Below, piece after piece: positions 2,100 through 52,354 of a stretch of 64,000 nt of DNA; position 1 is the first letter of the stretch, and every line of letters starts with the position of its first letter. Source of the stretch: an uncultured Gammaproteobacteria bacterium (GTDB lineage Bacteria > Pseudomonadota > Gammaproteobacteria > UBA9214). The notes under the pieces were generated by a model. It was given only the letters and a program-made list of their open reading frames with translations, ran no database searches and had not been told where the DNA came from. The stretch covers positions 1 through 64,000 of the forward strand of contig CAVVHS010000007.1 of assembly GCA_963748215.1 (NCBI GenBank). Direction: 5' to 3'. The position numbers were made by a program, and so were the translations under genes.

Positions 2100-2339
2100 G
2101 TTTCACCCTCGTGTCCTGGAAGCTCACCCTGATTGTGCCATGTCCGTTACAACAGGTCAGGCCTGGAGGCGGCTTTTCTGCAGTAGTTCTGACAGAAACG
2201 TCAGGCAGGCGCGAACGGTGTGCAAGTCTGCGGCCCGGGGCTATAATGCATCGCTTGCGTGGCAAGCCCCGTTTCCCCTAGATCGCGGTCCGTACCCGCA
2301 AGTCCCCTGTATGCAGATAACACCTCCCGCGCAACCGTG

Positions 2340-32233: not shown

Positions 32234-34237
32234 CAGTTGTGTGCTTCCTGTGTCTTGCGGGCTGCCCGGGCGGGCTGCACGGCCTGCTGCCTGAACGGGA
32301 GTCGGTAGCGCCGGTCGAGGGCGGCGAACAGGCCACCAATGGCGATCATCAGGCCGCCGAGCCAGATCCAGCGCACGTAGGGCTTGTAGTAGAGACGCAG
32401 GCTCCAGTCGCCACCACTACCCAGGCCTTCACCCAGCGATACGTAGATGTCGCGCATCAGGCCGGCGTTGATGCCGGCCTCGGTCATCGGCTTGGTCTGC
32501 ACTGTGTAGGTGCGTTTTTCGGGCGTGAGTGTTGTCACTTCCTTGCCTTCACGGGAGACCGCGATGCTGCCCTGGTCGGCCCGGTAGTTCGGGCCCTGCA
32601 CGGTACGCACGCCATCGAAGCGGAAGGTGTAGCCGGCCATGTCGATGGACTGGCCCGGCGACATACGGACATCCTGCTCGACATCGAACTGGGTGACGAA
32701 GGTGACACCGATAATGAACACGGCGACGCCTAGGTGGGCGAGAACCATGCCGAAATAACTGCCGTTGCCGCGCGCCATGGGATTTTTCAGCAAGGCCTGC
32801 AGGCTGGCGCGGCTGCGGTAGCGCTGGCGCAGGCTGAGCACCAGCGACGAGACCAGCCAGGTCGAGAGCATGACCGCCATGCCGGCCCAGGCCGAGAAAT
32901 CGTGCAGGATCGGCAGCGCCACCAGCAGGCCGGCGGCAACGCTGACCAGTATCGCCACGCGGAAGGTGCGCAGCAGCTCGGCAGGGGTCGTGGTGTTTCC
33001 AGCGCGTCAGCGGACCCAGTCCCATCAGGAAGATCATGAGCGGCGTGAAGATCGTGAACATGGTGGTGAACCAGGGAAAGCCGACCGAGATCTTGCCCCA
33101 GCCGAAGGCGTCGTAGATGAGCGGGGCGAGGGTGCCGAGCAGGATGAAGGCCGTGATCACCACCAGCAGCAGGTTGTTGCCCAGCAGCATGGTTTCCCGC
33201 GACAGCATCGAGAAGCGTCCACCGCTGGTGACGTCCGGCGCACGCCAGGCATACAGGGCGAGCGAACCGCCGATGACGATGCACAGGAACACCAGAATGA
33301 ACAGGCCGCGCGCCGGGTCGGCGGCGAATGAGTGCACCGAGGTCAGCACGCCGGAGCGGACCAGGAAGGTGCCCAGCAGACTCAGCGAAAAGGCCAGCAG
33401 TGACAGCAGTACGGTCCAGCGCTTGAAGGCGCCGCGTTTTTCGGTCACCGCCAGCGAGTGGATCAGCGCGGTGGCGGCCAGCCAGGGCATGAAGGAGGCG
33501 TTCTCGACCGGGTCCCAGAACCACCAGCCGCCCCAGCCGAGTTCGTAGTAGGCCCACCAGCTGCCGAGCGTGATACCGATGGTCAGGAACACCCAGGCGA
33601 CGGTGGTCCAGGGCCGCGACCAGCGCGCCCAGGTGGCGTCCAGCTTGCCGCCGATCAGTGCGGCGATGGCGAAACTGAAGGCGACCGACATGCCGACGTA
33701 GCCCATGTACAGCATGGGCGGATGGATGGCCAGGCCAAAGTCCTGCAGCAGCGGATTGAGATCGCCGCCCTCGAGCGGCACCGGGAACACACGCTCGAAC
33801 GGATTGGAGGTAAACAGCAGGAAGGACAGGAAGCCGATGCTGATCATGCCCATGACGGACAGCACGCGTGCCAGCACCTCGGCGGGCAGGTTGCGCGACA
33901 GCGAGGCAACCGCGACCGTCCAGCCGCAGAGTATCAATGCCCACAGCAGCAGCGAGCCCTCGTGCGCGCCCCACACGGCGGAGACCTTGTACACCGTCGG
34001 CAGCAGGCTGTTGCCGTGCTGTGCGACATAGGCAACCGAGAAATCGTTAACCAGGAAGGCGTTGACCAGGCAGGCGAAGGCGATGGCGGTGAACGTGAAC
34101 TGGCCCCAGGCGGCCGGTTTCGCCATGGCGACCCAGCGCGGCGTGTTGGTCAGGGTGCCGACCATGGGGAAGACGGCCAGTATCAGGGACAGGCACAGTG
34201 CCAGGATAAGTGCGAAATGGCCGAGTTCTGGGATCAT
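32233..34237 (-). CDS. ccmF: Heme lyase CcmF (apparent frameshift near 32990)
   Basis: [10 protein letters not shown] start, [14 protein letters not shown]; reading continues in another frame after WKH ([13 protein letters not shown]...LAHLGVAV...KPYVRWIW); span is 3n+1. Confidence 0.9.
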
Positions 34238-34705
34238 GGTGTCACCGTCCTCTGCGGCTGCAGCCTTACCGCCGCCTTCCTCGTGCGCGGTCTTCAGCGC
34301 ATCGGCGACCTCGGGCGGCATGTAGTTCTCGTCGTGCTTGGCCAGCACCTCGTCGGCGACGAACAGCCGTCCGCGCCGCAGGCGGCCGTGCGCCACGATG
34401 CCCTGGCCCTCGCGGAACAGGTCGGGCAGGATGCCGGTGTATTGCACGGTGATGGTTTCGGCGTTGTCGGTGATGTCGAAGTTGACGGTCAGTCCGTCGG
34501 ACTGGCGCTTCACGCTGCCGGTGGTGACCAGGCCGCCGACGCGGATCAGGTGATCGGCCGGCGCCTCGCCCGCGGCCACCTTGCTGGGCGTGTAGAAGAA
34601 CATCAGGTTTTCATTGAAGGCCTTGAGGGCGAAGCCGGCGGCGACGCCGACGCCGGCGACCATCAGGCCGATGAGCAACAGGCGTTGTTTGCGCTTGGGT
34701 GTCAT
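34234..34705 (-). CDS. ccmE: Heme chaperone CcmE (runs in-frame into ccmF as assembled)
   Basis: [26 protein letters not shown]; an out-of-frame TGA at 34234-34236 overlaps the ccmF ATG. Confidence 0.9.
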
Positions 34706-37521: not shown

Positions 37522-38898
37522 ATGGACATACATACCAAGCCGTTACCGTTCGAGCTGCAATCGCTGGTCGAGACGCATGCCAAGCCGTTTGTTGTGGTTG
37601 ATTCCGGGTACCGGATACTCGCTGTGAACTCTGCGTATGAAAAGACCTTCGGCATTGCGGCCGCAGACGCTGTTGGCAAATTCTGCCACCAGGTCAGTCA
37701 CAGCAGCGCGGTACCCTGTAGCGAGATCGGTGAGGATTGTCCCCATGCCAGCCTGTACAACAATCGCACGCCGACGTCCTGCCTGCATAACCACTTCGAT
37801 ATCAATAATCGTGCGTGCCAGGTCCGGGTATCCGCCTTTCCCCTGCGCGGCAGCGACGGGGAACTCTACATGGGTGAGTTGGTCGAGGAGCTCAACCCGC
37901 CGGCCGATCGGCGCATGAATGGCAAGCGCATGGTCGGAAAAAGCCGCCCGTTCCTCGCCTGTATCGAACAACTGAAAGTGGCGGCGGCGACCGATGCGCC
38001 GGTGCTGGTGCAGGGCGAGACCGGGACCGGCAAGGAACTGGCGGCCAGACATATACATCTCCACTCCTCGCGCAGAGAACAGCCGTTTCTGACCGTGGAC
38101 TGCACCGTGCTTACGGACACATTGTTCGAGGCGGAGGTGTTCGGCCATGCGCGTGGTGCCTTCACCGGCAGTGTGGGCGAACGCATCGGGCTGTTCGAGC
38201 AGGCCAATGGCGGCACGCTGTTCCTGGACGAGGTCGGCGAGTTGCCGATGTCGCAACAGGCCAAGCTGCTGCGTGCGCTGGAATCCGGACAATTTCGACG
38301 CGTCGGCGGCAGGCACCAGCGTAAAAGTGATGTGCGCATCATCTGCGCGACCAACCGGCATTTGTGGGATGGCGTGAAGGCCAGCCAGTTTCGCGAGGAT
38401 CTGTATTACAGGATTGCATGCATGGCAATCCGTATGCCGCCGCTGCGGGAACGGCTGAACGATATTGATGTCCTCGTGGCAAGCCTGCTGGAGCGGATCA
38501 GCGAGATCATGAAGCGGCATTTCATAGTCGAACCCGAGGCGATTCAGGGGCTGAAGCAACACGATTATCCGGGCAACATACGTGAATTGCGCAATGTCCT
38601 GTTTGTCGCAGCGTCGCGCAGTACCAGGAATGTGATCACCACTGATACGGTAGCCGCGGTGCTCGAAGAACAGCGGCGGGATCGACAGCACGAGCTGCCC
38701 GATACCAGCGGCCCGTCTCGGGCTGCAGGGCATGCGCGGCCCGGCAAGAAAATGACGCCAACACTGAAGGATGTCGAGGCGCAGCATATCGCCGAGCTGT
38801 TGCAGAAGCACAATCACAGCCGCAAGCTGGTCGCCGTGGCGCTGGGTGTCAGCGAGCGCACCCTGTACCGGAAGCTGAAACGTTATGCGCTGAACTGA
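37522..38898 (+). CDS. Sigma-54-dependent Fis-family activator with PAS domain
   Basis: PAS with CHQVSH...C...CPH; GETGTGKE, GAFTGS, LFLDEVGE, FREDLYYR, PGNIREL, Fis HTH. Confidence 0.93.
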   Translation: MDIHTKPLPFELQSLVETHAKPFVVVDSGYRILAVNSAYEKTFGIAAADAVGKFCHQVSHSSAVPCSEIGEDCPHASLYNNRTPTSCLHNHFDINNRACQVRVSAFPLRGSDGELYMGELVEELNPPADRRMNGKRMVGKSRPFLACIEQLKVAAATDAPVLVQGETGTGKELAARHIHLHSSRREQPFLTVDCTVLTDTLFEAEVFGHARGAFTGSVGERIGLFEQANGGTLFLDEVGELPMSQQAKLLRALESGQFRRVGGRHQRKSDVRIICATNRHLWDGVKASQFREDLYYRIACMAIRMPPLRERLNDIDVLVASLLERISEIMKRHFIVEPEAIQGLKQHDYPGNIRELRNVLFVAASRSTRNVITTDTVAAVLEEQRRDRQHELPDTSGPSRAAGHARPGKKMTPTLKDVEAQHIAELLQKHNHSRKLVAVALGVSERTLYRKLKRYALN

Positions 38899-38953
38899 CA
38901 GCAATGACGGTGCCGGGCTGTCAGTATTGTCTAACAAGCCTGTTTCCTGTTGT

Positions 38954-39082
38954 GGCTCTTTCCCAAATCGAGTGAATAGATTACCGTTGTACGGCCGAAT
39001 TCATTCGGCCAACAACCTTGCCATCAGAAGGAATGCGTCTCGTCTAAATTGATGTGTTACCCACTCAATCAGGGGAAGATCC
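38954..39082. mobile_element. MITE family A, short copy in reverse orientation
   Basis: ggctctttcccaaatcgagtg ... ccactcaatcaggggaagatcc; no clean TSD. Confidence 0.8.
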
Positions 39083-39097
39083 CTTGTGCCGTATTCT

Positions 39098-39456
39098 GGA
39101 TGCATACCATCACGGCCGAGGCAAACCCGGTCTAATGACGTGTGCCTGAACTGCCACAGTGACGAATCCGACGACGTGTTCACCCCCAGGGATGAATGGC
39201 CCGGTCACACCATGAAAGGTGTCGTGTCACGCCAGACCATGGACAAGTTGCAGATTGCGCTGCCGGGCAAGGTGTTCAGGACCGGAACTCGCTCAGCACC
39301 AGGTGCCGCAGTTGCCATGGCCACGAGAGGAGCCATGTCCAGTGCAGCGGCCCGAATGGCCGGGAGAGGAAGGACTGCCTGATCGAGGGCCGCGTTGCCG
39401 GGAGTGTCCGGGTCAGTGTGTCGACGTAACTGATCGGCAGCATCTGCGGCTGATAA
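39098..39456 (+). pseudogene. Decayed C-terminal fragment of a paralog of the giant multiheme cytochrome
   Basis: Across frameshifts and stops: WMHTITAEANP, DVCLNCHSDESDD, VSRQTMD, CRSCH, LIEGRV, ICG*; colinear with WMHTYTDEADP, DVCRNCHGDESDE, VSRVAMD, CTTCH, LIQGRV, GCGW of 41692-46977. Confidence 0.85.
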
Positions 39457-39675
39457 GGTCTATGCCCAGCAGTGCAAGGGGTAGGGATTTACTCCGCTTT
39501 ACGCAGCGAGACGAATGCATCGCTGCGACGTCGACGTTCACTGCCAGTATCCTTCTCAACAAGCGTGGCGGTACTTCCGTGGGTGTTGCGGGTCCTGTCC
39601 CTTGCCTTTTTTCACCAGTGACTTCGCGATGCGACGTGGGTGCGCTTTACCCGGCGTGCTGACGACGGGCCTGTG

Positions 39676-40128
39676 TCAGTTGCCGTTGCCAATCGCCGCG
39701 CGCAGTTCTCCGATATTATCCTGCAGGCGCTGCATGGCGAGCTGGTTGCGCTGCTGTACCAGCTGCGGAACGATGGTGATCACCTTCTGTCCGGTCGGCG
39801 TGATGTAGAAGGCATTCATGACCTTCAGTTCATCCTCGCTGAAGGTCTGCATGTACATTCGCGCCAGGTCATCCCTGATCGCATCCCAGCCGATATATTT
39901 TTCCAGAAAGGCCATCAGGACATCCTGCTTGGACGCAAGTCCCGGGTCCTGACGAACCTGAAGCTGCGCGACGGACGCTACGCTTTCGCTGATCTTCTGT
40001 TCCATGTGCGTCAGCTGGAACAGGGTTTCGACCGCCTGGCGGTGGCTGTCGGGTTCAGCCGCCTGCAGGGCCGGGCATGTCAGGGCGGCGGCCAGCAGCA
40101 GGCCGAGGTAGAAAGGGTGTGGTTTCAT
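39676..40128 (-). CDS. DUF2059 domain exported protein
   Basis: Signal peptide; YMQTFSEDELKVMNAFYITPTGQK. Confidence 0.8.
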   Translation of the reverse strand: MKPHPFYLGLLLAAALTCPALQAAEPDSHRQAVETLFQLTHMEQKISESVASVAQLQVRQDPGLASKQDVLMAFLEKYIGWDAIRDDLARMYMQTFSEDELKVMNAFYITPTGQKVITIVPQLVQQRNQLAMQRLQDNIGELRAAIGNGN

Positions 40129-40652
40129 TGTGTCGTCTCCTGTTCCTGTAACAGTTGCCTGATGAGGGACAGCGTTTCCTCGCTGTCCCATTGGGGTGTG
40201 CTCTGTACCCAATAGCGAATGCGTCCGTTGCCATCGAGCAGAAAGCTGGTCGGCAGCACCGTCATGTCCCATGCCTCGAAAAGTTGTTTGCGTGTGTCCA
40301 GCAGTACGGGCAGATCGAAATCGACCAGCTTGACGAATTTCCACACTCGGAATTCTTGTTCGCCGACGTTGACCGCCAGGATTTCGAAGGGCTGGCTGGG
40401 AAAAGTCTCCTTGAGGCGTTCCAGCTCCGGCAATTCCTGTATGCAGGGCGGGCACCAGCTGGCCCAGAAATTCACCAGTACCACCTTGCCGTGGTAATCC
40501 TCCAGGGAATGCATCTGGTCTTGCAGGTCGGGCAGGCTAAACGCGGTGTCAGCATGAGTGTTCTCATGCGGGACGAGCGCGGGCCCGGCCAGCGCCTGTG
40601 TCAGTGCCATCCAGAACAGGGTTATCGCCAGTGGTATCGATGCAAGTTTCAT
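40125..40652 (-). CDS. TlpA/ResA family thiol-disulfide oxidoreductase
   Basis: GKVVLVNFWASWCPPCIQELP, LPTSFLLD. Confidence 0.92.
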   Translation of the reverse strand: MKLASIPLAITLFWMALTQALAGPALVPHENTHADTAFSLPDLQDQMHSLEDYHGKVVLVNFWASWCPPCIQELPELERLKETFPSQPFEILAVNVGEQEFRVWKFVKLVDFDLPVLLDTRKQLFEAWDMTVLPTSFLLDGNGRIRYWVQSTPQWDSEETLSLIRQLLQEQETTQ

Positions 40653-40810
40653 ACGCGTGTTTTTATTAAATATGCAGGGAAATTATACACCCATGCGCGA
40701 TGGATAAAGGCCACGAAAACACACGGAATAACGAATGCAGTGAGGCATGAGACGTGAGTCGTGAAAGATAATGGCCACGGAATCCACGGAAGGACACGGA
40801 AAAATAAAAT

Positions 40811-41190
40811 GGATCTTCCCCTGATTGAGTGGGTTAATTACTCAATTTAGACGTGACGCATTGCTTCTGATGGCAAGGTTATTGGCCGAATGAATTCGGC
40901 CAGCGTTGTTTCTGTAGGGTCGAATTCATTCGACCAGCGGTGTTTCATTCGAGCAGGTATGCTGCGGTGATATCCGTAAACAAAAGAATGACGACCGCGG
41001 GTAACCGAGGTGATGCATATAGACTTGATGGTGCAGGGAATGACGCTCACCTGCGCAATGCGTCACAGGACAGGGCGACCTCCTTGTCTACAATGACAGC
41101 AGGCTGTTGGTCGAATACCCGATAAAGCGCCGGGCACAAGTGAATTCGGCCGTACAACGGTAATCTAGCCACTCGATTTGGAGAAGAGCC
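40811..41190. mobile_element. MITE family A, long copy
   Basis: ggatcttcccctgattgagtgg ... ccactcgatttggagaagagcc; interior colinear with 48666-49055; contains gtagggtcgaattcattcgacc REP. Confidence 0.85.
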
Positions 41191-41297
41191 AGATAAAGAC
41201 ACCGGCCAGGGCGGCAGATGCGTGTTCAGCGGTGCATGATCAAGACCCGGCAAAACCCTTCCGCAAGGCCGGGAATGCCACACCTGGCAGACATTCG

Positions 41298-41314
41298 TGT
41301 CAGTCATGCTGACA
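41298..41314. promoter_or_regulatory. Putative upstream activator site
   Basis: Palindrome TGTCAG-N5-CTGACA ~85-100 bp upstream of the sigma-54 box. Confidence 0.5.
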
Positions 41315-41398
41315 GTAATGGCTGACCCGCAGACAGGCGATGCTGCCCGTATTCAGACTGCATTCGGCACATCAACACCTTAACAGAACACGGGGCAA

Positions 41399-41414
41399 TG
41401 GCATGAAAGTTGCT
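41399..41414 (+). promoter_or_regulatory. Sigma-54 (-24/-12) promoter
   Basis: TGGCAT-GAAAG-TTGCT matches TGGCAC-N5-TTGCW with exact spacing, upstream of the giant cytochrome gene. Confidence 0.8.
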
Positions 41415-41691
41415 GTCCTTTTAAGCAGAGACAGCGAAACGAACAAGCACAGTTCCTCGCGGGTTTGTTTCATATAAGCACAGACAGGTGAAGGCAGAGG
41501 CGCAGCCTTTGGGGGATTTGAGTTGATAACCCGGCCAGTTACCACAAGGCAGGGGACAACTTGAAAACAGAGACTGCCGCATTATCGTACTGCACCGAAA
41601 CAATATTTATTACCGTTGCAACAGCAGCACGGCTTGCCGGGCGCTGTTTGGCTTAGTCATCAGAAAAATATTTGTCAGGAGGGGCAGGATA

Positions 41692-44600
41692 ATGACAACA
41701 ATACTCAAGGACTCGCGGCAATCGCGGTGGTCTGTATTTTTCATTACGGCCATGCTGGTCGTGATCGCGGCACTTGCGGCAGCACCAACCGCGCACGCCT
41801 CCAGCGGCTATCTGAATACCTGGAGCGGGCTATACCCCGGCTCCGCCTCGGACAACAATGCCAGCTGTCAACTCTGTCACGGTAGCAGTACCCAGAATAT
41901 AAATCCTTATGGCTTTGCCCTGGCCCAGTGCAACGGTGCCACCGGCAACATCACCCAGCGCATACAGGCGGTAGAAGGTCAGGATTCTGACGGACAGGGT
42001 GACTCGAACCAGACCGAGATCAACGCCAACGCGCAACCTGGATGGACTACGGGCGCGATGCAGGTTTGGACCCGCAACGGTTGCGCCCCGGCTGGCACCA
42101 ACACCTACCCCGGTAGTGGCGATGTGGATCCGGCAGCTGCCAACCTGCCACCGATCGCCGATGCCAACGGCCCATACACAGGCACTACAGGCCAGCCGGT
42201 GACTTTCGACGGTACCGGCTCATCCGATTCGGACGGTACGATCGCCAGCTATGCCTGGACCTTCGGTGACGGCGGTAACGGTACCGGCGTGAGTCCGACA
42301 CACACCTATACCAGTGCGGGCACCTTCACCGTGACCCTGACGGTAACCGATAACGCGGGTGCGACCGACTCGGCTACCTCAACGGCGACGATTGCTGCTG
42401 CTCCGCAGGCTCCGGTTGCTGATGCCAATGGCCCCTACAACGGCACTGCCGGTCAGCCGGTGACCTTCGACGGATCCGGTTCCAGCGATGCTGACGGCAC
42501 CATTGTGTCCTTTGCCTGGACCTTCGGTGACGGTACTACCGGTACTGGCGTATCCCCGACCAATACCTATGCCGCCGCCGGCACCTTCAACGTGACCCTG
42601 ACGGTGACGGATAACGACGGACTGACTGACACGGCGACCTCAACAGCGACTATTGTTGCTGCCCCGGTTGATCCGATCGCAGATCCCAACGGTCCGTACA
42701 ACGGCACCGAGGGTGTTGCCCTGACGCTGAATGGCAGCGCCTCGTTTGATCCTGACGGCGGTAACATTACCGCTTACGACTGGAACTTCGGTGACGGTAA
42801 TACCGGCACGGGTGCTACACCAACGCATACCTACGCTGCTCCTGGTCTTTACACAGTAAGTCTGGTTGTTGTGGATGATGAAGGTGCGCAGAGTGCGCCG
42901 GCGACGACGACTGCCGACATTGCCCAGGCACAGGTTGATGTGTGTGACTTCAGTGTAATTCCGACCTCGCTGGCTTTTGGTGGCGTGAATGTCGGCAGCA
43001 GCTCGACGTTGTCAACAACGGTGACCAACAACGGTACCGCGGCCTGCGCCATCACCGCCAGCGTGACATCCGGGACAGGTGAGTTCACCCTGGCCTCAGG
43101 ATCGACGGTCACGGTCGCAGCCAATGGGGGAACGGCCAGTGTCTCCGTCGACTACACGCCGGTGAACACTGGTGCTGACAGCGGAACCCTCAACCTGTCG
43201 AGCAATGATCTCAACAATGTGCAGGCTGTTGGTGTTTCGCTGTCGGGTACCGGTGTCGACAATGTTCCTCCGCCCGTCGATTGTGAGGGTCTCAATATCA
43301 CCCGGGCAGATTACAGTAATCGTCGGAACCGGCTCAGCGTCGACGGTAACGGCGGCGAGAGAAATGGCGGTGATTTTGTGCTGACCAATGCCTACGATTC
43401 AACACAGATACTGGCGACGGGATCACGGGACAGGGACAGGAGCTTCAGATTCCGCGTCAGCAACCCCAATCCAGTGCCGTGTGTTGTACGGGTCGAACAG
43501 CCTGAGACAGGCTTGTGCGCGATTGCCGATGTGGCCAACGCGCCTGAAGACTGTGCCCCTAAGGCCCCCCCACCACCCCCCGGCGGAGGTGATGGAATCA
43601 CTGCCCGTGGTGACACCTATGCCACCCCGGTTGGTAACACCCTCACGGTGTCGGCCTCACGCGTCTCCGGCGTGCTCTACAATGACTTCGGTGGCGTGCC
43701 GCCGCTGACAGCACAGCTGGTCAGCGGACCTACCGCCGGTAACCTGGATGCTTTCGGTGCAGACGGTTCATTTACCTATACCCCGGGCAGTGCCATGGTC
43801 GATAATCAGATCGACCAGTTCACCTACGTCGCGGTGGATGCAAACGGTGATGAATCGGCTCCGGCCACGGTCGTACTGCAGACCCTGTCCAAGCAGACCG
43901 ACTTCAAGATCCTGATGAACTACGAGCTGGGCATGCACTGCACCGGTTTCGAGTTTGCCTACTGCTGCGTACTGCCGCCGTACAACTCGATCATCGCGCA
44001 GGTTGTGAAACCGGCGCAGAACGACCCGGCTAATTCTGGCAACAACTTCGTCGATGGTTTCCCTCGCATGCTCGAGGGCGATCCAAACGTCGGTCTGGAC
44101 GGTTTGAACCGTGAGACCGTGGTGCGCGACTGGGATTACACCACCAGCTCGTTCAAGAAGTACCAGCTGCGCTACTATCACGACGCTCAGCCACGCCAGG
44201 AAGGCAATACCGGCAAGCCCAACACCAGCACGCTGATCAGTGCGGCGGAAGGTAACTCGCTGCAGTACTTCAATACGGTGTTCGATTCCGCAGCACCTGA
44301 CGGTGGTAATGCGCTGGTGTACGGTGAGTACAACGGCTTGCAGAACGTAATACAGGGTGACGGCAGTTTTGGCGGCCCCACCGACAACTATGCCAACGGT
44401 TGGCTGAACCACTTTTACATCTACGGCAACCTCGAAGGCCATGGTAATACAGGCCTTGAAGCCGATAAGGTCCGCCTGGGTGTCGCCGGACAGGTGGAAT
44501 ATCCACCGAATTCAGGCGCTGCGCTGCAGCCGCTGGGGCCAACCGGTAATGGTGCCTTTGAAAACGTGCTGACCTTCTCGGCCGACACCGGCACCGTGGT

Positions 44601-46977
44601 CTTTACCCAGGCCAAGGTGCTCGAAGACCTGCCGATCATGCTGACTTCGCCGCGCATCTGGGAGGCCCTGGGCCTGCCGCTGACGCCGTTCGAGGACACC
44701 ATCGGCTTCTTCGCTGATCCGGGTGCAGTGGACGAAGACGCGGTCCGGCCCTATGTGGCCATGAAGGCTTCCTTGCACGAGTATCCGTCGGGCAATGCGG
44801 TAACGGGCAGCAACGGCCAGCCGGTGATCGGTTTCGGTACCGCACCGATCGATATACCGAACTGCGAGCGTTGCCACTCGGCACCCTCTGTCGATCCGGT
44901 CACGGGCAATCCGAATGTCAACAGCCCGAACTGGAACAGGCCAGATGCTTTCTACCCGCATACCAACGGCACGGTTCCGTTCGGCACAGGACTGGAGGAG
45001 ATCACCAACCTGGAGATCAGCTTCTGGCAGGCCTACTACGATATCATCCCGGGCGTGGATTCGACCTGGTACTCAAGGCTGAAGGGCGCGGCGATCAATA
45101 TGCTGACCCTGCATGACCTGGACGTAGGCACCAGCTTCACCGCGAATTACGCCGGTGTGGATTGCGTCGATGTGAACAACTGTTCGCACACCAACGGACT
45201 GGCGGACCTGACCAATACCAGCGACATCCCGCAGAACACCCGCCTGGGTGGAGAATCGGTCATCTGCCAGCGCTGCCATGCTGATAACGTGATTGCCAAC
45301 GTCAAATCGGCCACCTTCGATGTGGACGGGCAGTTCCCCATCAAACCGATTTCGGAAGCCATTCACAATCAGCACCGCAATCAAAGTGAAGACGGCGTAA
45401 TCGTGTTCAACGACAGCCTCGGTCGCGACGGCGGCTGCCAGGGCTGTCACCCGGCCCACCGTTCGGACGGCGTGATGGATGACTATCCCATCACTCTGGG
45501 CGGCAACAACGCCAATGCCAGTGACGACAACCGCCTCAACCTGGGTGGCTGCTTCGTCGGACGTGATGTTCACTCCAACCCGATGAAGGACATCGATGGC
45601 GTCGAAACGCCGAGCCATCTGAATGCTGTGGGTACCTGGCTGGTTGATAATGTTGCCTTCGATCAGGGCGACGCACGCGGTATCTGGTGCACCAACTGTC
45701 ATACCCAGCTGGGTCAGGAAATGTGGCGCACCGAGGACTGCAACGACCTGATTCGCGGTGACTGCCTGGTCAATCCGCGTGCCGGGGCGACACTGGCAGA
45801 TGTTGCGGCCGCAGTCGGACTCACCGAGCAGCAAGCGATCGATTACCTCGACCCCAAGGTCGATGGCTTTGATCGCACCTCGGACCAGACCCACGCAATC
45901 TGGGCTCCAGCCTCAGTCACGTCGGATGCCAATGTAGCGACCATCGAGGTCGATGGCGGCGGTAATCCAGTGGTCACCTTTGACGCCGATGGCGACCCCA
46001 GTGTCAACATACTGAGCTTCTGCACCACAGATGACTGCGTGGCCCGGATCAATGCCAATCCAAGTGACCAGAGTCAGTGGCGCTACCCGGCCAACCCGTT
46101 CATCGATCCGGTGAACAACTCGGGCTTTCCGGTACCGTTCAGTGCGGCCACCGACGGCCGGGATCACTGGCTGGCCGCCGGCGAACCCCACTGTGCGGAC
46201 TGCCACCAGGCGCCATATGTTGAGCAAAGCGGTAATATCACAGCCTACCCGCCGTTCAACTACCCGGCCAAGGCCAGCCTGATGCGCTACACCCGTGGCC
46301 ACCAGGACATCAGCTGCCAGGGCTGTCACGAGTCGATACACGGTCTCTACCCGGTGACCCCGACGATTGACACCACCAGCTATGCACAGGCAGCGGCACT
46401 CAATAACGACGGTTCTCATGGTCCGCTGAAGTGCGCAAGCTGCCACACCTACGTGGATGGCGATGGCATTCCGAACTGGGTGGACAATCTGCGCTACAAC
46501 GATCCGACCACGCCGGGCAATGACAACCTGCCGGTTGCCGGTAATTTCGACCGGGCGGTCAGCTGGATGCACACCTACACGGACGAGGCCGATCCGACAC
46601 AGGACGTGTGCCGGAACTGCCATGGCGACGAGAGTGATGAGATGTCGGAGAACGATCAGGAGTACCTGGAGCACGCTATGGTTAACCGCGTATCGCGTGT
46701 GGCCATGGACAACGCCGAGCGCGCCGTCAACAACGGACAGGTGTTTGGCGAGACGGCCGGTTCCCAGCGTGTCCAGCTGTGCACCACCTGTCACGAATCC
46801 GGAGATCGTGACGGCGACCGGCGTCGACATAGAGGTGGTGATCGCCATGGCGGTGGCGGCAACCAGCTGCCGAATGTCAGCTGCAATACGACCTGGAGGA
46901 ATCACCTGATCCAGGGGCGTGTCTCCGAGTTGGTATGGGAAGATATATCCGCTCCGTTGGGTGGCTGCGGCTGGTAA
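41692..46977 (+). CDS. Giant (1761 aa) decaheme cytochrome c with PKD and Ig-like domains
   Basis: Sec signal (AHA); 10 CxxCH; three PKD repeats (PIADANGPY...WTFGDG...VTLTVTD); further Ig/cadherin-like domains; YELGMHC...LPPYN domain. Confidence 0.92.
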   Translation: MTTILKDSRQSRWSVFFITAMLVVIAALAAAPTAHASSGYLNTWSGLYPGSASDNNASCQLCHGSSTQNINPYGFALAQCNGATGNITQRIQAVEGQDSDGQGDSNQTEINANAQPGWTTGAMQVWTRNGCAPAGTNTYPGSGDVDPAAANLPPIADANGPYTGTTGQPVTFDGTGSSDSDGTIASYAWTFGDGGNGTGVSPTHTYTSAGTFTVTLTVTDNAGATDSATSTATIAAAPQAPVADANGPYNGTAGQPVTFDGSGSSDADGTIVSFAWTFGDGTTGTGVSPTNTYAAAGTFNVTLTVTDNDGLTDTATSTATIVAAPVDPIADPNGPYNGTEGVALTLNGSASFDPDGGNITAYDWNFGDGNTGTGATPTHTYAAPGLYTVSLVVVDDEGAQSAPATTTADIAQAQVDVCDFSVIPTSLAFGGVNVGSSSTLSTTVTNNGTAACAITASVTSGTGEFTLASGSTVTVAANGGTASVSVDYTPVNTGADSGTLNLSSNDLNNVQAVGVSLSGTGVDNVPPPVDCEGLNITRADYSNRRNRLSVDGNGGERNGGDFVLTNAYDSTQILATGSRDRDRSFRFRVSNPNPVPCVVRVEQPETGLCAIADVANAPEDCAPKAPPPPPGGGDGITARGDTYATPVGNTLTVSASRVSGVLYNDFGGVPPLTAQLVSGPTAGNLDAFGADGSFTYTPGSAMVDNQIDQFTYVAVDANGDESAPATVVLQTLSKQTDFKILMNYELGMHCTGFEFAYCCVLPPYNSIIAQVVKPAQNDPANSGNNFVDGFPRMLEGDPNVGLDGLNRETVVRDWDYTTSSFKKYQLRYYHDAQPRQEGNTGKPNTSTLISAAEGNSLQYFNTVFDSAAPDGGNALVYGEYNGLQNVIQGDGSFGGPTDNYANGWLNHFYIYGNLEGHGNTGLEADKVRLGVAGQVEYPPNSGAALQPLGPTGNGAFENVLTFSADTGTVVFTQAKVLEDLPIMLTSPRIWEALGLPLTPFEDTIGFFADPGAVDEDAVRPYVAMKASLHEYPSGNAVTGSNGQPVIGFGTAPIDIPNCERCHSAPSVDPVTGNPNVNSPNWNRPDAFYPHTNGTVPFGTGLEEITNLEISFWQAYYDIIPGVDSTWYSRLKGAAINMLTLHDLDVGTSFTANYAGVDCVDVNNCSHTNGLADLTNTSDIPQNTRLGGESVICQRCHADNVIANVKSATFDVDGQFPIKPISEAIHNQHRNQSEDGVIVFNDSLGRDGGCQGCHPAHRSDGVMDDYPITLGGNNANASDDNRLNLGGCFVGRDVHSNPMKDIDGVETPSHLNAVGTWLVDNVAFDQGDARGIWCTNCHTQLGQEMWRTEDCNDLIRGDCLVNPRAGATLADVAAAVGLTEQQAIDYLDPKVDGFDRTSDQTHAIWAPASVTSDANVATIEVDGGGNPVVTFDADGDPSVNILSFCTTDDCVARINANPSDQSQWRYPANPFIDPVNNSGFPVPFSAATDGRDHWLAAGEPHCADCHQAPYVEQSGNITAYPPFNYPAKASLMRYTRGHQDISCQGCHESIHGLYPVTPTIDTTSYAQAAALNNDGSHGPLKCASCHTYVDGDGIPNWVDNLRYNDPTTPGNDNLPVAGNFDRAVSWMHTYTDEADPTQDVCRNCHGDESDEMSENDQEYLEHAMVNRVSRVAMDNAERAVNNGQVFGETAGSQRVQLCTTCHESGDRDGDRRRHRGGDRHGGGGNQLPNVSCNTTWRNHLIQGRVSELVWEDISAPLGGCGW

Positions 46978-46986
46978 CCACGTATG

Positions 46987-47056
46987 ACCGCCCGCTCTGG
47001 ATGGAGCGGGCGGTTTCCATCGATGGAGGGGATATCTCTGTATCCCCTCCATTTTT
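46987..47056 (+). terminator. Two consecutive hairpins, the second with a T-tail
   Basis: accgcccgctc...gagcgggcggt and atggaggggata...tatcccctccattttt. Confidence 0.75.
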
Positions 47057-47161
47057 AACGCTACATGAATCGCGGCGCCGAGCAGCTCATCGTCCTGTTG
47101 TTCCAGGCGGCGGGATAGCGTAGTTTTATCGGAAGACCTGTAAGTTCAGAGGATAATAAGC

Positions 47162-48643
47162 ATGAGATTCCTGTTTGCCTTCCTGATGATTTTCAATCTG
47201 CTGTTTGCGAATGTCTCAATGGCCGTGGCACGTGCCGGGGAATCGGCAAAGGCAGACACGGACAGTGACATCATTGCCCGGGTCGGTGATCAGGACATCA
47301 CCTTTAACCAGATCAATACCATGCTCAACAGTTCCGCTGTGATCGGAGTATCGGTGCCGGCGCTGGGCACGCCACAGCGCGACACCGCCAGGATTGTAGT
47401 GCTGGACAAGGTGGTCAGCGCGAACCTGCTCTACCTCGATGCCATTCGCCAGGGCCTGGACAAGGATCCGGCCTATCAACGGGATATGCAGAACTTTACC
47501 GAGGGCATGCTGGGTGGGCAGTATTACCGTCAAATCATGGCGGGTGATATCCTCGTGTCGGAGACGGAGATCCAGGAATTTTTCTCCAAGACCATGAAGT
47601 CGGGCACCGAAATGAGCGACGATTTGCATACCCAGATCGAAGCAGCCCTGCGCAAGCGCAAGCTGCACGAACGCGTCGCAGCGAAGCGCGCAGAACTGCG
47701 CCAGGGTATCGAGGTAGACATCTACCCGGACAACCTGGCTGCGGCCGGGGAGGAGGCGCCGGCGGATGATGTGCCGGTGGCGAAGTACGGCGATCAGGTT
47801 ATCAGCTGGGGTGATGTCAATGACACCCTGGTAGCAGCGGGCAGGGGAGCAACCGACCTGGATCCCACCGCGATGGAAGTCGATGCGCAGCTCGCGGCGC
47901 TGGAGATGGTGATCGACAAGCGCATCATTGCAGCCAAGGCTCGTGAAGCCGGGCTGGAGCAGGACGCCATCTACCAGTCACGCCTGAATGAATACCAGAA
48001 GACCCGGCTGGTGAATATGCACCGGGCAAACCTGGCTCGGGATATGGAACCATCCGATGAGCAGCTGAAGTCTTACTACGACGCGAATCGCAACACGATC
48101 ATGCAGGTGGAGATGCGCAAGACCCAGGAAGTTCTGCTCAAGACGCGCGAGGAAGCCGAAGCCCTGAAGGCCAGGATCGAGTCAGGGGAGCTGACCATGT
48201 ACCAGGCCGCCGCTGACTATTCCATTGCCCCTGGGGCCAAACAGCAACTGGGTGAGGTGGGCTGGGTGGCCGCAGGGCGTGCCCAGACGGCGCTGGACGA
48301 GGTGATCTTCAAACTGGGCCCCGGCGAGCTCGGTGGCCCGGTCGAGTCCACACAGGGCTGGCACCTGGTCAAGGTGCTTGATATCAGCGATGCGAAATTC
48401 GACATCTTCGAGGATCAGGAAACGCAGAAGCTCACCCGGCGCCGTTACATCCACGACCAGCTGGATGCCTATGTCATGGACCTGCGCAAGAACGACTTCA
48501 CGGTGGAAGTTTATGAAGACAATCTGGTCCGGCTGGCGCAGAAAGAGGCGGACATGATCGCCAGACTGACCGAGCAGGCGTCCAAGCCCGGTTCCAGGAC
48601 CGAGCAGCGCGTGAAGGAACTCAAGGATCTGATTGGCGAGTAA
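47162..48643 (+). CDS. Periplasmic parvulin/PpiC-type peptidyl-prolyl isomerase chaperone
   Basis: Signal peptide; two SurA-N-like segments; AADYSIAPGAKQQLGEVGW...GPVESTQGWHLVKV. Confidence 0.85.
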   Translation: MRFLFAFLMIFNLLFANVSMAVARAGESAKADTDSDIIARVGDQDITFNQINTMLNSSAVIGVSVPALGTPQRDTARIVVLDKVVSANLLYLDAIRQGLDKDPAYQRDMQNFTEGMLGGQYYRQIMAGDILVSETEIQEFFSKTMKSGTEMSDDLHTQIEAALRKRKLHERVAAKRAELRQGIEVDIYPDNLAAAGEEAPADDVPVAKYGDQVISWGDVNDTLVAAGRGATDLDPTAMEVDAQLAALEMVIDKRIIAAKAREAGLEQDAIYQSRLNEYQKTRLVNMHRANLARDMEPSDEQLKSYYDANRNTIMQVEMRKTQEVLLKTREEAEALKARIESGELTMYQAAADYSIAPGAKQQLGEVGWVAAGRAQTALDEVIFKLGPGELGGPVESTQGWHLVKVLDISDAKFDIFEDQETQKLTRRRYIHDQLDAYVMDLRKNDFTVEVYEDNLVRLAQKEADMIARLTEQASKPGSRTEQRVKELKDLIGE

Positions 48644-48665
48644 CGCGGAGCGCGAAACTTTTTCA

Positions 48666-49055
48666 GGATCTTCCCCGGATTGAGTGGGTAACACATCAAT
48701 TCAGACGAGACGCATTCCTTCTGATGGCAGGGTTGTTGGCCGAATGAATTCGGCCCTACTGTAGGGTCGAATTCATACGACCAGCGTTGTTTCTCAACCA
48801 GACCGTAGGGTCGAATTCATTCGACCAATGGTGTTTCATCCGAGCAGGCGTGCTGCGGTGATATCCGTAAACAAAAGAATGATGACCGCGGGTAACCGTG
48901 GTGATGCAATCGACTTGATGGTGCAGGGAGTGACGCTCACCTGCGCAATGCGTCACAGGACAGGGTGACCTCCTTGTTTCCTATGGCAACAGGCTGTTGG
49001 CCGAATGAATTCGGCCCTGCAACGGTAATCGACCCACTCGATTTGGGGAAGAGCC
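48666..49055. mobile_element. MITE family A, long copy with near-perfect 8-bp TSD
   Basis: ggatcttccccggattgagtgg ... ccactcgatttggggaagagcc; flanks ctttttca / ctttttaa. Confidence 0.85.
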
Positions 49056-49316
49056 CTTTTTAATCACTATCCATCCTGAAAGGTGGCCCGCAGCCTGTGT
49101 CGGGCAATTATCGCCCAGGATGTGGGCAGGGCGGTGTACGTACTGCATAACCTGCGCTGGCGCGATGACTCTTGTCCTGCGCAGGTGTGGTAGCACATTC
49201 CATCAAACATCCACTTTCATAGCCCCCCGTTGCTCCCGGGTTTGTACCTTGCCAATGGCTAGCCCATGCGGCCGATTCGGATATACACTCGATCGGGAGA
49301 CCGGAGTCCCCAGCTG

Positions 49317-49856
49317 ATGAAAATTCAGGCAACTGTACCTGTGTCGTTGTTCCTGCTCTGCCTGTGCTTGCCTGTGCAGGCCGGTGAACTGGAGCAGTAT
49401 CCCGACTTCGGGTCGACGCCCCCGCTGCTGCTGAGGGACCTCGGTGACAGGGAACATGCGCTGACCGATTACCGGGGCCAGGTGGTGCTGGTCAACTTCT
49501 GGGCCAGCTGGTGTTCGCCCTGCCTGGTCGAGATGCCGTCCATGCAGCGACTCCAGCGGTCCCTGGCCGGCAGGCCGTTCGCCATCCTGGCTGTCAATGT
49601 CAGGGAATCCCGGGAGAAGGCCTGGCGCGTCAGGAAGCGGCTGGGCGTGGACTTCACCACGCTGCTCGACAGCAACGGTGTCGTCACGGGTGACTGGGAT
49701 GTGCAGGTTTACCCCACCAGTTTCCTGGTCGATCCGGAGGGCCGGATTCGCTACATCGCCTATGGCATGGTGCGCTGGGATGACGACCCGGCGCAGCAGG
49801 TGATCGAGCAGCTCATGCCAGACCGGGAAGCTGTGCAGGCCGCGAGTGTCCGGTAG
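49317..49856 (+). CDS. TlpA/ResA family thiol-disulfide oxidoreductase
   Basis: GQVVLVNFWASWCSPCLVEMP, YPTSFLVD. Confidence 0.92.
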   Translation: MKIQATVPVSLFLLCLCLPVQAGELEQYPDFGSTPPLLLRDLGDREHALTDYRGQVVLVNFWASWCSPCLVEMPSMQRLQRSLAGRPFAILAVNVRESREKAWRVRKRLGVDFTTLLDSNGVVTGDWDVQVYPTSFLVDPEGRIRYIAYGMVRWDDDPAQQVIEQLMPDREAVQAASVR

Positions 49857-49984
49857 TGTGCTGACCCGTGTGTACTTATTTTCATGCCTGGCAGGATACG
49901 CCGGCGTACCGTGCAGCGTCCCTGCTGTCCGGGATCAGTGTGCTGCGGGGTGTCCACCTGGCGCAGATGTGTAACCTGTCGCAG

Positions 49985-50394
49985 GCCGGGGTCCTTTCTC
50001 GATCGCCAGGCCGCCTGTATCCAGGCGGAGAAGGTCCCCTCGATGTGATAGAGGCCCCCGATGCCGGCATCCAGCAGGATCGGTTCGGCCTGGCGGGTGC
50101 GCGAGCCCTTAATGCAGTAGATCGGCACGCCATGGTCGTGGTCGGGGTCATCGAGGTGCTGCTCCAGCTCGTCGAGCGGAATGTTGATGGCGCCGGGTAT
50201 ATTTTCGATCCTGAATTCGTACGCTTTACGCAGGTCGACCACGAGGGGCGCAGTTCCGGTCTCCGGCAGTGTCTGGACCCGCTGAGGGGTGGCCCGGCGA
50301 CATGAAATCCGCGGCCGGCCGGGCCAGGGGAAGCAGGACCAGCAGTCCTGCCGCGGCAAGTGATCGAAAACCGGAAAGCGACATTTTCCCTCAT
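49985..50394 (-). pseudogene. Frameshifted exported rhodanese-like sulfurtransferase
   Basis: VVDLRKAYEF..NIPGAINIP..IYCIKGSR..EGTFSAW; signal peptide and C-terminal GLAIEKG fall in other frames. Confidence 0.75.
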
Positions 50395-50427
50395 CCAGGA
50401 GGGGCAGCGGTCTGTACCCAGGTCTGT

Positions 50428-50940
50428 TTATTTTGTTTCCTGCGCGCCGTCTGCGCCTGTCAGTGCCAGGCAGGCCGGCAGGTGAAACTCCGCATCCAGC
50501 CGGTAGCGTTCGTCGAAGAACCCGTTGCAGTCACTGTCCATAATGACATAGTTTTCCGTCACGTCTGCATCGTCATCGCCCTTGGTGTCGAGACTCCAGG
50601 TCCAGAGTATGCCGTTTGTGGTCATGCTGAACAGGGTGTCGCCCTGGCTGTTGATGTAGCGCACCACATGCGTCTCGTTGATGCCGTCGCCATCGCCGTC
50701 GTCATCATATTCGTTGTGCAATGTGAAACCTTCCATTGCGGGTTTGGCGTAGATGCCCTTACCCATGGCGGGGGGCTCAGTGGCCGTGGCAGGCGGGCCG
50801 GGATTGCTTGCCACCTGCACCGCAGGCTCCTGCGATTGCTCGCTGCAGGCGCCGAGAAACAGCCCCGCCAGGACCAGAAAAACAACCCTGGCCGACAGGC
50901 GATCGGCAAGGCCGGTGACAGGGGACATGGAATCCTTCAT
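50428..50940 (-). CDS. Hypothetical lipoprotein with DxDxDG loops
   Basis: Lipobox LGAC; DDDGDGDG and DSDCNG motifs. Confidence 0.75.
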   Translation of the reverse strand: MKDSMSPVTGLADRLSARVVFLVLAGLFLGACSEQSQEPAVQVASNPGPPATATEPPAMGKGIYAKPAMEGFTLHNEYDDDGDGDGINETHVVRYINSQGDTLFSMTTNGILWTWSLDTKGDDDADVTENYVIMDSDCNGFFDERYRLDAEFHLPACLALTGADGAQETK

Positions 50941-52021: not shown

Positions 52022-52139
52022 CGCTCGTCCGTATTCCGGGTGGCCCGCCGCTGCTTGCCGGCGGACCGCCCGGTCCGGTTTCTTTACCGGAACATGGGGT
52101 TCCGGTCCCCGATCCCCCTTTTGTAGTTCGTTGGCATAT

Positions 52140-52354
52140 GTAGGGTGCACTTCGTGCACCGTTCATGGTGCGTAAAACGCACCCTACGTACTGTTTTTCC
52201 GTGTGGTTCCGTGGTCATTCTTCTTTTCACCACTCGGCTTTCCCGGTGCGTAGAACGCACCCTGCGTATTCGGGTTGTAGGGTGCACTTCGTGCACCGTT
52301 CATGGTGCGTAAAACGCACCCTACGTCCGGGTTCCGGTCCGTAAAACGCACCCT
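52140..52354. repeat. GTAG-REP cluster
   Basis: gtagggtgcacttcgtgcaccgttcatggtgcgtaaaacgcaccctac twice plus partial copies; same family as 29163-29367. Confidence 0.85.

Follow-up and report, generated by a model that had tools for sequence, protein, structure and literature searches.

What does a 1761-aa exported protein with ten CxxCH heme-binding motifs, encoded amid putative folding and redox helpers, do for its gammaproteobacterial host? The gene lies in a stretch of 64,000 nt (the window), and the original prediction, made from the letters alone, had described its product as a giant stalked decaheme cytochrome. Open reading frame, Pfam annotation and motif positions bore out the exported protein with its ten motifs, PKD stalk and YELGMHC domain, which are arranged as follows:

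41692–46977, forward strand: cytochrome open reading frame (1761 aa, 10 CxxCH)
41692–42141, forward strand: Sec-type signal peptide and optional N-terminal monoheme domain (CQLCH)
42142–43875, forward strand: variable acidic stalk with three PKD domains, an ASH/choice-of-anchor D domain, an unnamed domain and Big_9 (Pfam/NCBIfam)
43894–44859, forward strand: family-defining Ig-like beta-sandwich with insertions (AlphaFold model, conservation)
44860–46581, forward strand: conserved seven-heme core (conservation)
46582–46977, forward strand: two-heme C-terminal extension of the nine-heme clade, with CGW at its end

The CxxCH motifs start at aa 59, 1058, 1192, 1249, 1333, 1501, 1542, 1581, 1640 and 1697, giving a 1+7+2 spacing. 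By eye, the signal peptide comprises aa 1–36, with a predicted cut between AHA and S at 36/37, and no lipobox was seen. The N-terminal domain matched NF041762 weakly, far under the NCBIfam cut-off. Within the stalk (pI ~4.0), Pfam recognized PKD in three stretches, an Ig domain of ASH/Cep192 type (aa 418–521) and, weakly, Big_9 (aa 639–728); the motif YELGMHC..YCCVLPPYN occupies aa 744–765.

Judged by its sequence, the protein belongs, as a stalked form, to a large cytochrome family that has no name. We counted 518 stretches matching this family in the GTDB genomes and none in the plasmid collection. Its constant unit combines the Ig-like domain (LGMHC...YCC) with seven CxxCH hemes and shows at least 40% sequence conservation across phyla and many invariant polar residues. 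The two C-terminal hemes mark one clade, and stalk and tenth heme are variable extras: among the best 120 hits, 111 ended in the C-terminal CGW and only 15 had the N-terminal tenth heme, so the giant stalked decaheme is not the defining form it had been taken for. Length ahead of the core motif varied from 118 to 745 aa among homologs, as did domain make-up, with stalks of PKD, Big, cadherin or dockerin type, and seven-heme members (~800 aa) do without a stalk and sit in two- or three-gene operons in cultured strains. In a FastTree phylogeny, P0187, P0139 and P0140 formed long branches. Cultured carriers include Thioalbus denitrificans, Endothiovibrio diazotrophicus and Methylomarinovum caldicuralii. 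Further members come from Methylomirabilis as well as from methanotrophs, Nitrospinae, KSB1, Calditrichota, Planctomycetes and Syntrophales, the latter six groups not being known as sulfur oxidizers. Two metatranscriptomes (X1 and X2) gave small word shares (0.07 and 0.05, respectively); their contigs over the heme core were mostly <95% identical, i.e. derive from relatives, and can indicate neither transcription nor its level.

More widely, we delimited an unnamed LGMHC..LPP[YF]N multiheme superfamily by its GMHC Ig-like domain, seven aligned heme positions and a distal Cys-x-Arg after heme 3. The 1761-aa cytochrome has all of these features and aligns heme for heme with distant relatives. 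Among the matches listed, family profile A2 hit NDLGMHC proteins at a whole-sequence E ≤1e-20; the profile-profile score is partly circular, as superfamily profile A3 includes eight family members. A T9SS sorting domain scored above cut-off in four of 54 distant relatives, which places proteins exported through the outer membrane within the wider superfamily.

In line with the claim that this is not a characterized cytochrome, searches of PDB sequences, folds and families returned no full-length characterized relative. Phmmer with the core and two family profiles found nothing in PDB sequences at E<0.01. AlphaFold models of 1027 and 584 residues were confident (pLDDT 86–87); Foldseek matched neither at E≤0.001, and the best VIA wide Z scores were 4.8 (generic Ig folds) and 4.0. 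Known multiheme folds were absent from both lists, which for models of >400 residues is no proof of a new fold; the absence there of the MccA/NrfA/HAO/OTR heme stack, with its long C-terminal helices, likewise does not exclude that fold. The superfamily profile matched many cytochromes at CxxCH level only, ESM Atlas matches were confined to unnamed or c7-labeled clusters, and the three C-terminal core hemes weakly resembled cytochrome c7. We found no paper describing the family; beyond the available text, supplementary tables of an atlas of unidentified cytochromes (PMC11492766) and of a paper with metaproteome tables (PMC6850669) may contain members.

What, then, do the conserved residues suggest? 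In the Ig-like domain, M748-H749 are invariant and C750, C758 and C759 near-invariant; the seven-heme core contributes C1287, eight invariant non-motif His and several invariant Arg. Nine non-motif His and one Met thus face seven core hemes as invariant ligand candidates, and distant relatives still have eight His/Met candidates for seven hemes. The extra Cys, arranged as HC-x7-CC and C-x6-H, co-vary: 354 of 365 proteins retained all four and nine had lost the whole set, the nine falling in two separate lineages of the FastTree phylogeny. The C1287-equivalent was found in all 54 distant relatives, though outside the search pattern, and was followed two residues on by Arg in the distant-relative motifs tallied. 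Ligands outnumbering hemes together with co-varying Cys point to a catalytic site, and the proposed GMHC/heme 3/4 site, whose ligands exceed the needs of seven bis-His hemes, is the likely catalytic center. P0433 and P0434, however, kept C750/C758 and lost C759/C1287, which suggests two disulfides among the four Cys; the losses fit a pair of structural disulfides and a catalytic site equally well. Selenocysteine was not encoded at these positions, as no stop codon occurred at the four conserved Cys sites of the loci examined (100/100, 102/102 and 53/53 Cys).

The genes around the cytochrome offer a second line of evidence:

39676–40128, reverse strand: exported DUF2059 protein (Pfam)
40125–40652, reverse strand: TlpA/ResA-like thiol-disulfide oxidoreductase 1, WCPPC (Pfam/NCBIfam)
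47162–48643, forward strand: exported parvulin/SurA-type foldase (PPIase; Pfam)
49266–49856, forward strand: TlpA/ResA-like oxidoreductase 2, WCSPC (Pfam/NCBIfam)
49935–50384, reverse strand: exported single-domain rhodanese with two frameshifts (Pfam)
50428–50940, reverse strand: small exported protein with a DGDGDG..ETH motif and one Cys pair

Apart from the small protein, Pfam agreed with the predicted identity of these neighbors and of the PAS activator described below, and their linkage to the cytochrome, also predicted, recurred in other genomes. The PPIase gene follows 66 of 71 cytochrome gene copies, is present in 13 of 14 carrier but 0 of 11 non-carrier genomes of the genus and, in homolog P0475, is fused in frame to the cytochrome; on this pattern of linkage, the PPIase is a dedicated folding helper of the family. 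The remaining elements (TlpA, rhodanese, DUF2059, small protein, PAS activator and the sigma-54 site) each accompany 22–40% of family loci. TlpA-like genes were found at 29 of 74 loci, DUF2059 at 16, and exported rhodanese homologs with the active-site Cys at 18. The rhodanese in the window had been called decayed, and two frameshifts are indeed there; as ccmE/F, dsrA and mtrB of the same assembly also show frame breaks, they may be read errors. The small exported protein, without a Pfam or NCBIfam family, is co-inherited with the cytochrome (17/74 loci; 10/14 carrier vs. 0/11 non-carrier genomes of the genus).

Three elements concern regulation:

37522–38898, forward strand: PAS-AAA-HTH sigma-54 activator (Pfam)
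41298–41314, forward strand: TGTCA..TGACA inverted repeat, putative activator binding site
41399–41413, forward strand: sigma-54 –24/–12 promoter site, TGGCATGAAAGTTGC

By itself, the sigma-54 site in the window is not above chance (one found vs. 0.48 expected). Its significance derives from enrichment across homologous loci, where such sites occurred upstream of 29 of 73 homologs as compared to 3 of 73 on the reverse strand and 1.2% in shuffles, upholding the predicted sigma-54 control; sigma-70 promoters were not above chance. The inverted repeat lies ~85–100 nt upstream of the –24/–12 site, and TGTC-N5-11-GACA palindromes likewise precede many homologs. Activator homologs were present at 21 of 74 loci, and alignment of the PAS domain with 14 of them revealed conserved Cys/His, making it a putative redox, metal or sulfur sensor.

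A link to sulfur oxidation, suggested in the original prediction, holds at the genome level. The described position between ccm and sox genes is real in the window, where soxB/A/X were confirmed by NCBIfam, but local to close relatives: of 74 loci, one had a close soxB homolog and four had the full ccm set (ccmF occurred near family genes only within a full ccm operon, 3–4/74). Across 301 sampled gammaproteobacterial genomes, all 11 carriers were positive for dsrA and soxB (background 93/301 and 114/300, respectively); outside the cytochrome's own genus, this applied to nine of nine (Fisher p 2e-5, uncorrected for kinship). Among soxB-positive genomes, carriers made up 9 of 83 with dsrA and 0 of 29 without, a non-significant preference (p 0.11), so the link may reflect chemolithotrophic ecology. 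PEP-CTERM genes, hinted at by a few loci of the genus, were rejected as linked (3/74 loci vs. ~6 per Mb in genome G000).

We favor, at a probability of roughly 40%, a reading in which the cytochrome is an exported oxidoreductase for polysulfide or zero-valent sulfur, working like MccSep or TsdA without being homologous to them. It would make or break S–S bonds of polysulfide, protein persulfide, sulfur globules or particulate sulfur, in the direction of either oxidation or reduction, outside the cytoplasm of rDsr-type sulfur oxidizers. The ~114–128 residues per heme and the near-invariant sequence seen here are typical of an enzyme and not of an electron-carrying "wire"; the surplus His/Met, the co-varying Cys with the C1287-equivalent of all 54 distant relatives, the dsrA/soxB-positive carriers, the rhodanese neighbors and the MccSep precedent likewise argue for a sulfur enzyme. 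In MccSep of Geobacter sulfurreducens, according to the available text of PMC13510729, polysulfide is reduced at a His/Cys heme to which an Ig-like domain delivers a chalcogen nucleophile. Like the present family, MccSep/ExtKL, described there as periplasmic, combines multiple hemes with an Ig-like domain and Cys/Sec residues outside the heme motifs; it has five hemes, selenocysteine and a C-terminal Ig domain, whereas here there are seven core hemes, no Sec and an N-terminal Ig domain. Family profiles did not match MccSep/ExtKL, and 9wt9 was hit at motif level only (E 6e-4, amid many unrelated cytochromes); MccSep/ExtKL is a possible analogue in design of the proposed site. TsdA and SoxAX resemble the cytochrome in a possible Cys plus Arg beside a heme and in their presence in sulfur oxidizers, yet are Class I diheme folds, and profile hits to SoxA were at chance level (E 0.2–0.7).

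In the proposed mechanism, the first step, which we consider well supported, would have the PAS activator and sigma-54 co-express cytochrome and foldase; the apoprotein would be Sec-exported, folded with its PPIase and heme-loaded by housekeeping Ccm, with TlpA setting the non-heme cysteines. Conservation suggests that the GMHC loop then packs against the heme 3/4 region, where H749, C750/C758/C759, C1287, H1256 and nearby Arg may meet in a predicted site analogous to the Ig-domain Sec and His/Cys heme of MccSep. The remaining hemes would exchange electrons with periplasmic carriers, and the exported rhodanese would shuttle sulfane sulfur, while in this clade the adhesin-type stalk may tether the enzyme to envelope, matrix or particle and the two or three extra hemes may lengthen the wire. 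Against the sulfur-enzyme reading count the missing Sec, the nine proteins devoid of the four Cys and the paired partial losses, the occurrence in phyla beyond sulfur oxidizers, the p value of 0.11, the lack of any sulfur-oxidation gene as a conserved neighbor across the 74 loci, and a patchy presence in the genus (14/25 genomes) that contrasts with universal soxB (15/15 good genomes) and tracks MtrB. A bolder version, in which the protein is the founding member of a large superfamily of new-fold exported multiheme enzymes whose Ig-borne Met-His-Cys loop and redox Cys cluster activate zero-valent sulfur at a heme, the stalked nine/ten-heme clade being surface-tethered and attacking particulate sulfur or metal sulfides upstream of rDsr, appears rather unlikely.

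The main rival, doubtful in our estimate, makes the protein a cell-surface terminal of extracellular electron transfer akin in role to MtrC/OmcA or OmcZ, exported by type II secretion, held out on its adhesin stalk, trading electrons with Fe/Mn minerals, metal sulfides or humics and supplied by an MtrAB/MtoAB conduit encoded elsewhere. The variable stalk and the T9SS domains of distant relatives would suit this role, as would two GspD above cut-off in G000 and a C6 paralog ~12 kb from a gsp cluster, although GspE, found in nearly all genomes of the genus, does not discriminate carriers. MtrB/PioB accompanied 11 of 14 carriers vs. 1 of 11 non-carriers in the genus, but none of the nine carriers outside it, and an MtrB homolog was seen at one of 74 loci, whereas MtrC/OmcA come with their MtrAB porin-cytochrome conduit. 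The cytochrome resembles MtrC/OmcA/MtrF in being exported, in combining beta-domain and hemes and, in this copy, in its ten CxxCH; PF22113 gave a weak 35.6 bits from the CxxCH stretches, TIGR03507 (MtrC/OmcA) gave no hit, and the two-pentaheme layout is absent. OmcZ has a much higher heme density and matches the cytochrome in neither sequence nor fold. Its operon in G. sulfurreducens also encodes a PPIase, GSU2074, according to the available text of PMC5585712, the shared trait being a multiheme cytochrome, extracellular in the case of OmcZ, co-encoded with a PPIase. The stalkless seven-heme members, the low heme density and the surplus ligands, unlike those of wires, further weaken this rival.

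Distinctly unlikely is a periplasmic oxidoreductase whose substrate is some other small molecule than a sulfur compound (nitrogen oxide, hydroxylamine, peroxide/O2 or metalloid oxyanion), possibly with Cu or Zn in the Met/His/Cys cluster, as in MccA. MccA, whose structure is present in the PDB, has a Cu site, and MccB is the PPIase of the mcc cluster. The family resembles the MccA/SirA octaheme sulfite reductases of Wolinella and Shewanella in that seven CxxCH occur along with additional conserved Cys, in low heme density and in its PPIase and TlpA-like helpers, the TlpA-like SirH belonging to the sir cluster in the available part of PMC6976685; surplus ligands, sigma-54 control and presence in Nitrospinae, Methylomirabilis and methanotroph bins also speak for such an enzyme. 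The eighth motif of MccA/SirA (CX15CH or CX12NKGCH) was absent when all Cys/His were listed and their conservation checked, phmmer and two family profiles showed no homology in the PDB at E<0.01, and MccA/SirA clusters differ in their dedicated heme lyase and quinol-oxidizing partner, neither of which is a conserved neighbor here. N-cycle genes were not conserved neighbors at the 74 loci either, nosZ was rejected as a partner (3/25 genus genomes, not tracking carriers), and strict nesting within dsrA-positive genomes of the class sample argues against a non-sulfur substrate. Least probable is a non-catalytic periplasmic relay or capacitor with H749 or M748 as a plain heme ligand and two structural disulfides, which the dispensable Cys, the P0433/P0434 losses and the c7-like hemes would allow, but which leaves ligand candidates in excess of hemes even in the smallest relatives and whose conservation across phyla, invariant polar residues and dedicated foldase would be more than is usual for a relay.

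With an almost constant foldase partner and carriers that are only sulfur oxidizers among the sampled gammaproteobacteria, the cytochrome is, on sequence evidence, a good candidate for an extracytoplasmic redox enzyme that processes sulfur in a new way. Entire respiratory lifestyles are defined by multiheme cytochromes, and the present family is widespread, highly conserved and confidently modeled while lacking a PDB match in sequence or fold searches. It has long been asked how rDsr-type oxidizers mobilize sulfur from polysulfide, globules or external sources ahead of the cytoplasmic steps, and a surface-tethered sulfur enzyme would fill this gap upstream of the rDsr pathway. The ~800-aa members in cultured strains make a direct biochemical or genetic test practical, whichever rival is right.

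The window also bears traces of a second family gene and of a repeat, both missed in the original prediction:

38938–39085, no strand assigned: dispersed repeat (~400 nt), partial copy, inverted relative to the other two
39030–39490, forward strand: relic 3′ end of a second family gene with the last two CxxCH, frameshifted
40808–41206, no strand assigned: dispersed repeat, copy 2
48661–49060, no strand assigned: dispersed repeat, copy 3

In sequence, the relic comes closest to the intact gene at locus L057 (75% nucleotide identity over 409 nt), and the repeat has 15 genome hits of at least 200 nt.

The cytochrome gene (41692–46977, + strand) encodes a 1761-aa protein whose ten CxxCH motifs are arranged as 1+7+2. 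Within its N-terminal 730 residues Pfam recognises three PKD stretches, an Ig domain of the ASH type and, weakly, Big_9. No NCBIfam cytochrome family scored near its cut-off, PDB sequence searches with the family were empty, and literature searches found no published description. We conclude that this cytochrome family is real, conserved and undescribed, and that it has its own maturation module.

Searching with the cytochrome part from residue 735 (P0001; 8000 candidates scored) matched 856 proteins, the best 120 of which were at least 55% identical. In the GTDB genome collection, relatives were encoded in 518 stretches, and the 74 loci kept came mainly from uncultured Gammaproteobacteria, Thiogranum, Ca. 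Thiodiazotropha and Sulfuricaulis, with a few Desulfocapsa/Desulfobacterales, Methylomirabilis and Nitrospirota bins. A second search with a distant member returned 1365 stalk-free, seven-heme proteins of about 700–850 aa, from Nitrospinae, KSB1, Calditrichota, Planctomycetes, Gallionellaceae, Sedimenticola, Endothiovibrio and Methylomarinovum, among others; a regular expression found a lipobox-like signal in 27 of 108 seven-heme proteins. Nine-heme forms constitute a single clade (39 of 65 rows in a FastTree phylogeny, support 100), and the region N-terminal to the core motif varies among the 120 best matches from 118 to 745 aa, with differing PKD, Big, cadherin, ASH or dockerin domains. The conserved unit is therefore the Ig-like domain plus seven hemes; the N-terminal heme occurs in only 15 of the 120 best matches, and the window gene is the most decorated form of the family.

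A pattern for NDLGMHC, a motif related to that of the family, matched at least 122 metagenome stretches. Alignment was confined to 54 distinct closed reading frames (358–748 aa) with at least five hemes C-terminal to the motif; the family profile matches these proteins over their whole length, with one-to-one alignment of the seven heme positions, and named NCBIfam cytochrome families gave nothing beyond weak scores against them. A T9SS sorting domain scored above cut-off in 4 of the 54. Judging from such a C-terminal domain, the five-CxxCH superfamily members at loci L103, L112, L133 and L161 are apparently exported by type IX secretion.

Around the window gene, the predicted activator, PPIase, two TlpA-like proteins, DUF2059 protein and rhodanese were all located, together with a small family-less protein, as were the sigma-54 site and the position between the ccm operon and c5/HupE-UreJ/soxB/soxAX. 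As a conserved context the ccm/sox setting did not hold, Sox and ccm genes not being kept as neighbours across homologous loci. Linkage of the helper genes did recur in other genomes: the PPIase started within 700 nt of the gene end in 66 of the 71 copies with enough flank, and among the 74 loci, many of them short, TlpA was found in 29, the activator in 21, the rhodanese in 18, the small protein in 17 and DUF2059 in 16. Within the window's own genus, the PPIase was present in 13 of 14 genomes carrying the family gene vs. 0 of 11 non-carriers, and the small protein, unlinked cases included, in 10 of 14 vs. 0 of 11. In other families the PPIase lay 3′ of 8/10 seven-heme copies (E < 1e-4), and in protein P0475 it is fused to the cytochrome. 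A sigma-54 site preceded 29 of 73 family ORFs, compared with 3 of 73 when the opposite strand was searched and 1.2% for shuffled sequences; a TGTCA..TGACA palindrome often lies roughly 100 nt farther upstream of the family sites.

Nine loci have a seven-heme paralog downstream of the PPIase and in the same orientation. The genome G000 holds a second full copy (contig C6) and a third with a frameshift (C8), both with a PPIase after them, besides a relic in the window. Located 3′ of the C6 paralog is a lipoprotein of another kind, which bears nine hemes as well as PKD and choice-of-anchor D domains and is followed by a TlpA (G000:C6:703146-706070, − strand; L085:5147-8071); related eight/nine-heme proteins lie near a family gene in L012, L013, L017, L021 and L023. 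Upstream of the same paralog (G000:C6:718802-739768, L086) are a TIGR03790-like/JDVT-CTERM protein, a VPLPA-CTERM protein, a subtilase and a second type II secretion cluster. G000:C8:148884-156850 encodes, in this order, a 15-heme protein, two small membrane proteins (YeeE/YedE-like by eye), one more exported protein and a frameshifted MtrA/MtrB-type pair.

Relics, repeats and frame breaks (window coordinates unless a contig is named)
39030-39490, + strand: relic of a second family gene (last two hemes, frameshifted), lying between activator and DUF2059 and closest in sequence to the intact L057 gene
38938-39085, 40808-41206, 48661-49060: copies of a ~400-nt non-coding dispersed repeat
32233-34705, − strand: ccmE runs into ccmF, whose frame breaks close to its 3′ end
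G000:C6:353160-354375: split dsrA
G000:C8:154861-156847: split mtrB

The close relative L057 carries an intact family gene, after which come DUF2059, TlpA, c5, HupE and soxB. The relic represents only the 3′ end of such a gene (75% nt identity), with the same DUF2059 and TlpA after it; next, a segment flanked by the dispersed repeats holds the present cytochrome and PPIase, and the TlpA-rhodanese-small protein block is inverted relative to most homologous loci. The present gene order looks like a recent rearrangement, which the MITE-like repeats (internal GAATTCATTC palindromes; 15 matches of at least 200 nt in G000) may have driven. The frame breaks in ccmE/F, dsrA and mtrB are probably indel errors in the assembly, so broken copies in the window may be read errors as well.

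AlphaFold2 modelled both the core (1027 aa; pLDDT 86.2, pTM 0.89) and the heme region (584 aa; pLDDT 87.4, pTM 0.89) with confidence. Residues 735–1056 are modelled as a beta-sandwich containing large insertions, which matched generic Ig folds only (Z up to 4.8), and a fold search with the heme region gave no clear match. Heme distances and ligands were inferred from conservation. Across 154 aligned proteins, nine non-motif histidines (H749, 1141, 1225, 1228, 1256, 1294, 1537, 1550 and 1627) are at least 96% conserved and, together with M748, would serve seven hemes, although M748-H749 was used to pick these rows and its invariance is not independent. The two extra hemes of the nine-heme form bring exactly two additional histidines (1661, 1738). 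Distant relatives (n = 54) retain eight His/Met positions for seven hemes; that of H1294 is mostly Met (40/54), and the last is less certain (28/54, gaps in 19).

Four extra cysteines (750, 758, 759 and 1287) are all kept in 354 of 365 proteins, all lost in nine and partially lost in two; P0433 and P0434 retain only 750/758, and distant relatives 750 and 1287. This joint pattern suggests that the four probably lie near one another, linking the GMHC loop to the region past core heme 3. A catalytic or metal site would fit, and two disulfides would fit equally. Sub-lineages lacking two or all four (P0159, P0431-P0434, P0187) offer natural controls. No selenocysteine was found.

The family was present in 11 of 301 gammaproteobacterial genomes with a completeness of 90% or more; all 11 had dsrA (93/301 overall) and soxB (114/300 overall). 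The nine carriers outside the window's own genus, from eight families, all had both (p about 2e-5, kinship ignored); within the genus soxB is nearly universal. As carriers also exist outside Gammaproteobacteria, the family is not confined to sulfur oxidisers. The nine gammaproteobacterial carriers outside the genus, all with seven-heme forms, lacked MtrB; within the genus, which includes stalked forms, it was present in 11/14 carriers vs. 1/11 non-carriers. The seven- and nine-heme clades may therefore have different locations or partners.

We tentatively favour, at roughly 40%, an exported S-S bond oxidoreductase. This reading rests on analogy with MccSep, a polysulfide reductase whose Ig-like domain places Sec next to a His/Cys heme (PMC13510729). 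That the cytochrome acts instead as a surface electron-transfer terminal seems rather unlikely. A neighbouring PPIase leaves location undecided, as one is also described for the extracellular OmcZ (PMC5585712). An enzyme acting on a non-sulfur substrate appears improbable, and a plain relay marginally more so. The protein failed membership tests for each of MccA/SirA, MtrC/OmcA and MccSep.

At one locus only (L213:8755-18128), the PPIase, TlpA and a seven-heme family gene adjoin an apparent (by eye) SoeABC-type sulfite dehydrogenase operon. In the window, soxB (53799-55739, + strand) encodes a longer-type SoxB (about 646 aa) that carries an insertion compared with TIGR04486, a form common to most of the genus; a REP-like palindromic repeat (52139-52333, two 58-nt copies) separates cytochrome c5 from the HupE/UreJ gene, and at 1149-5536 and 10182-13502 a diheme cytochrome c adjoins TPR and FG-GAP/ASPIC-UnbV repeat proteins.
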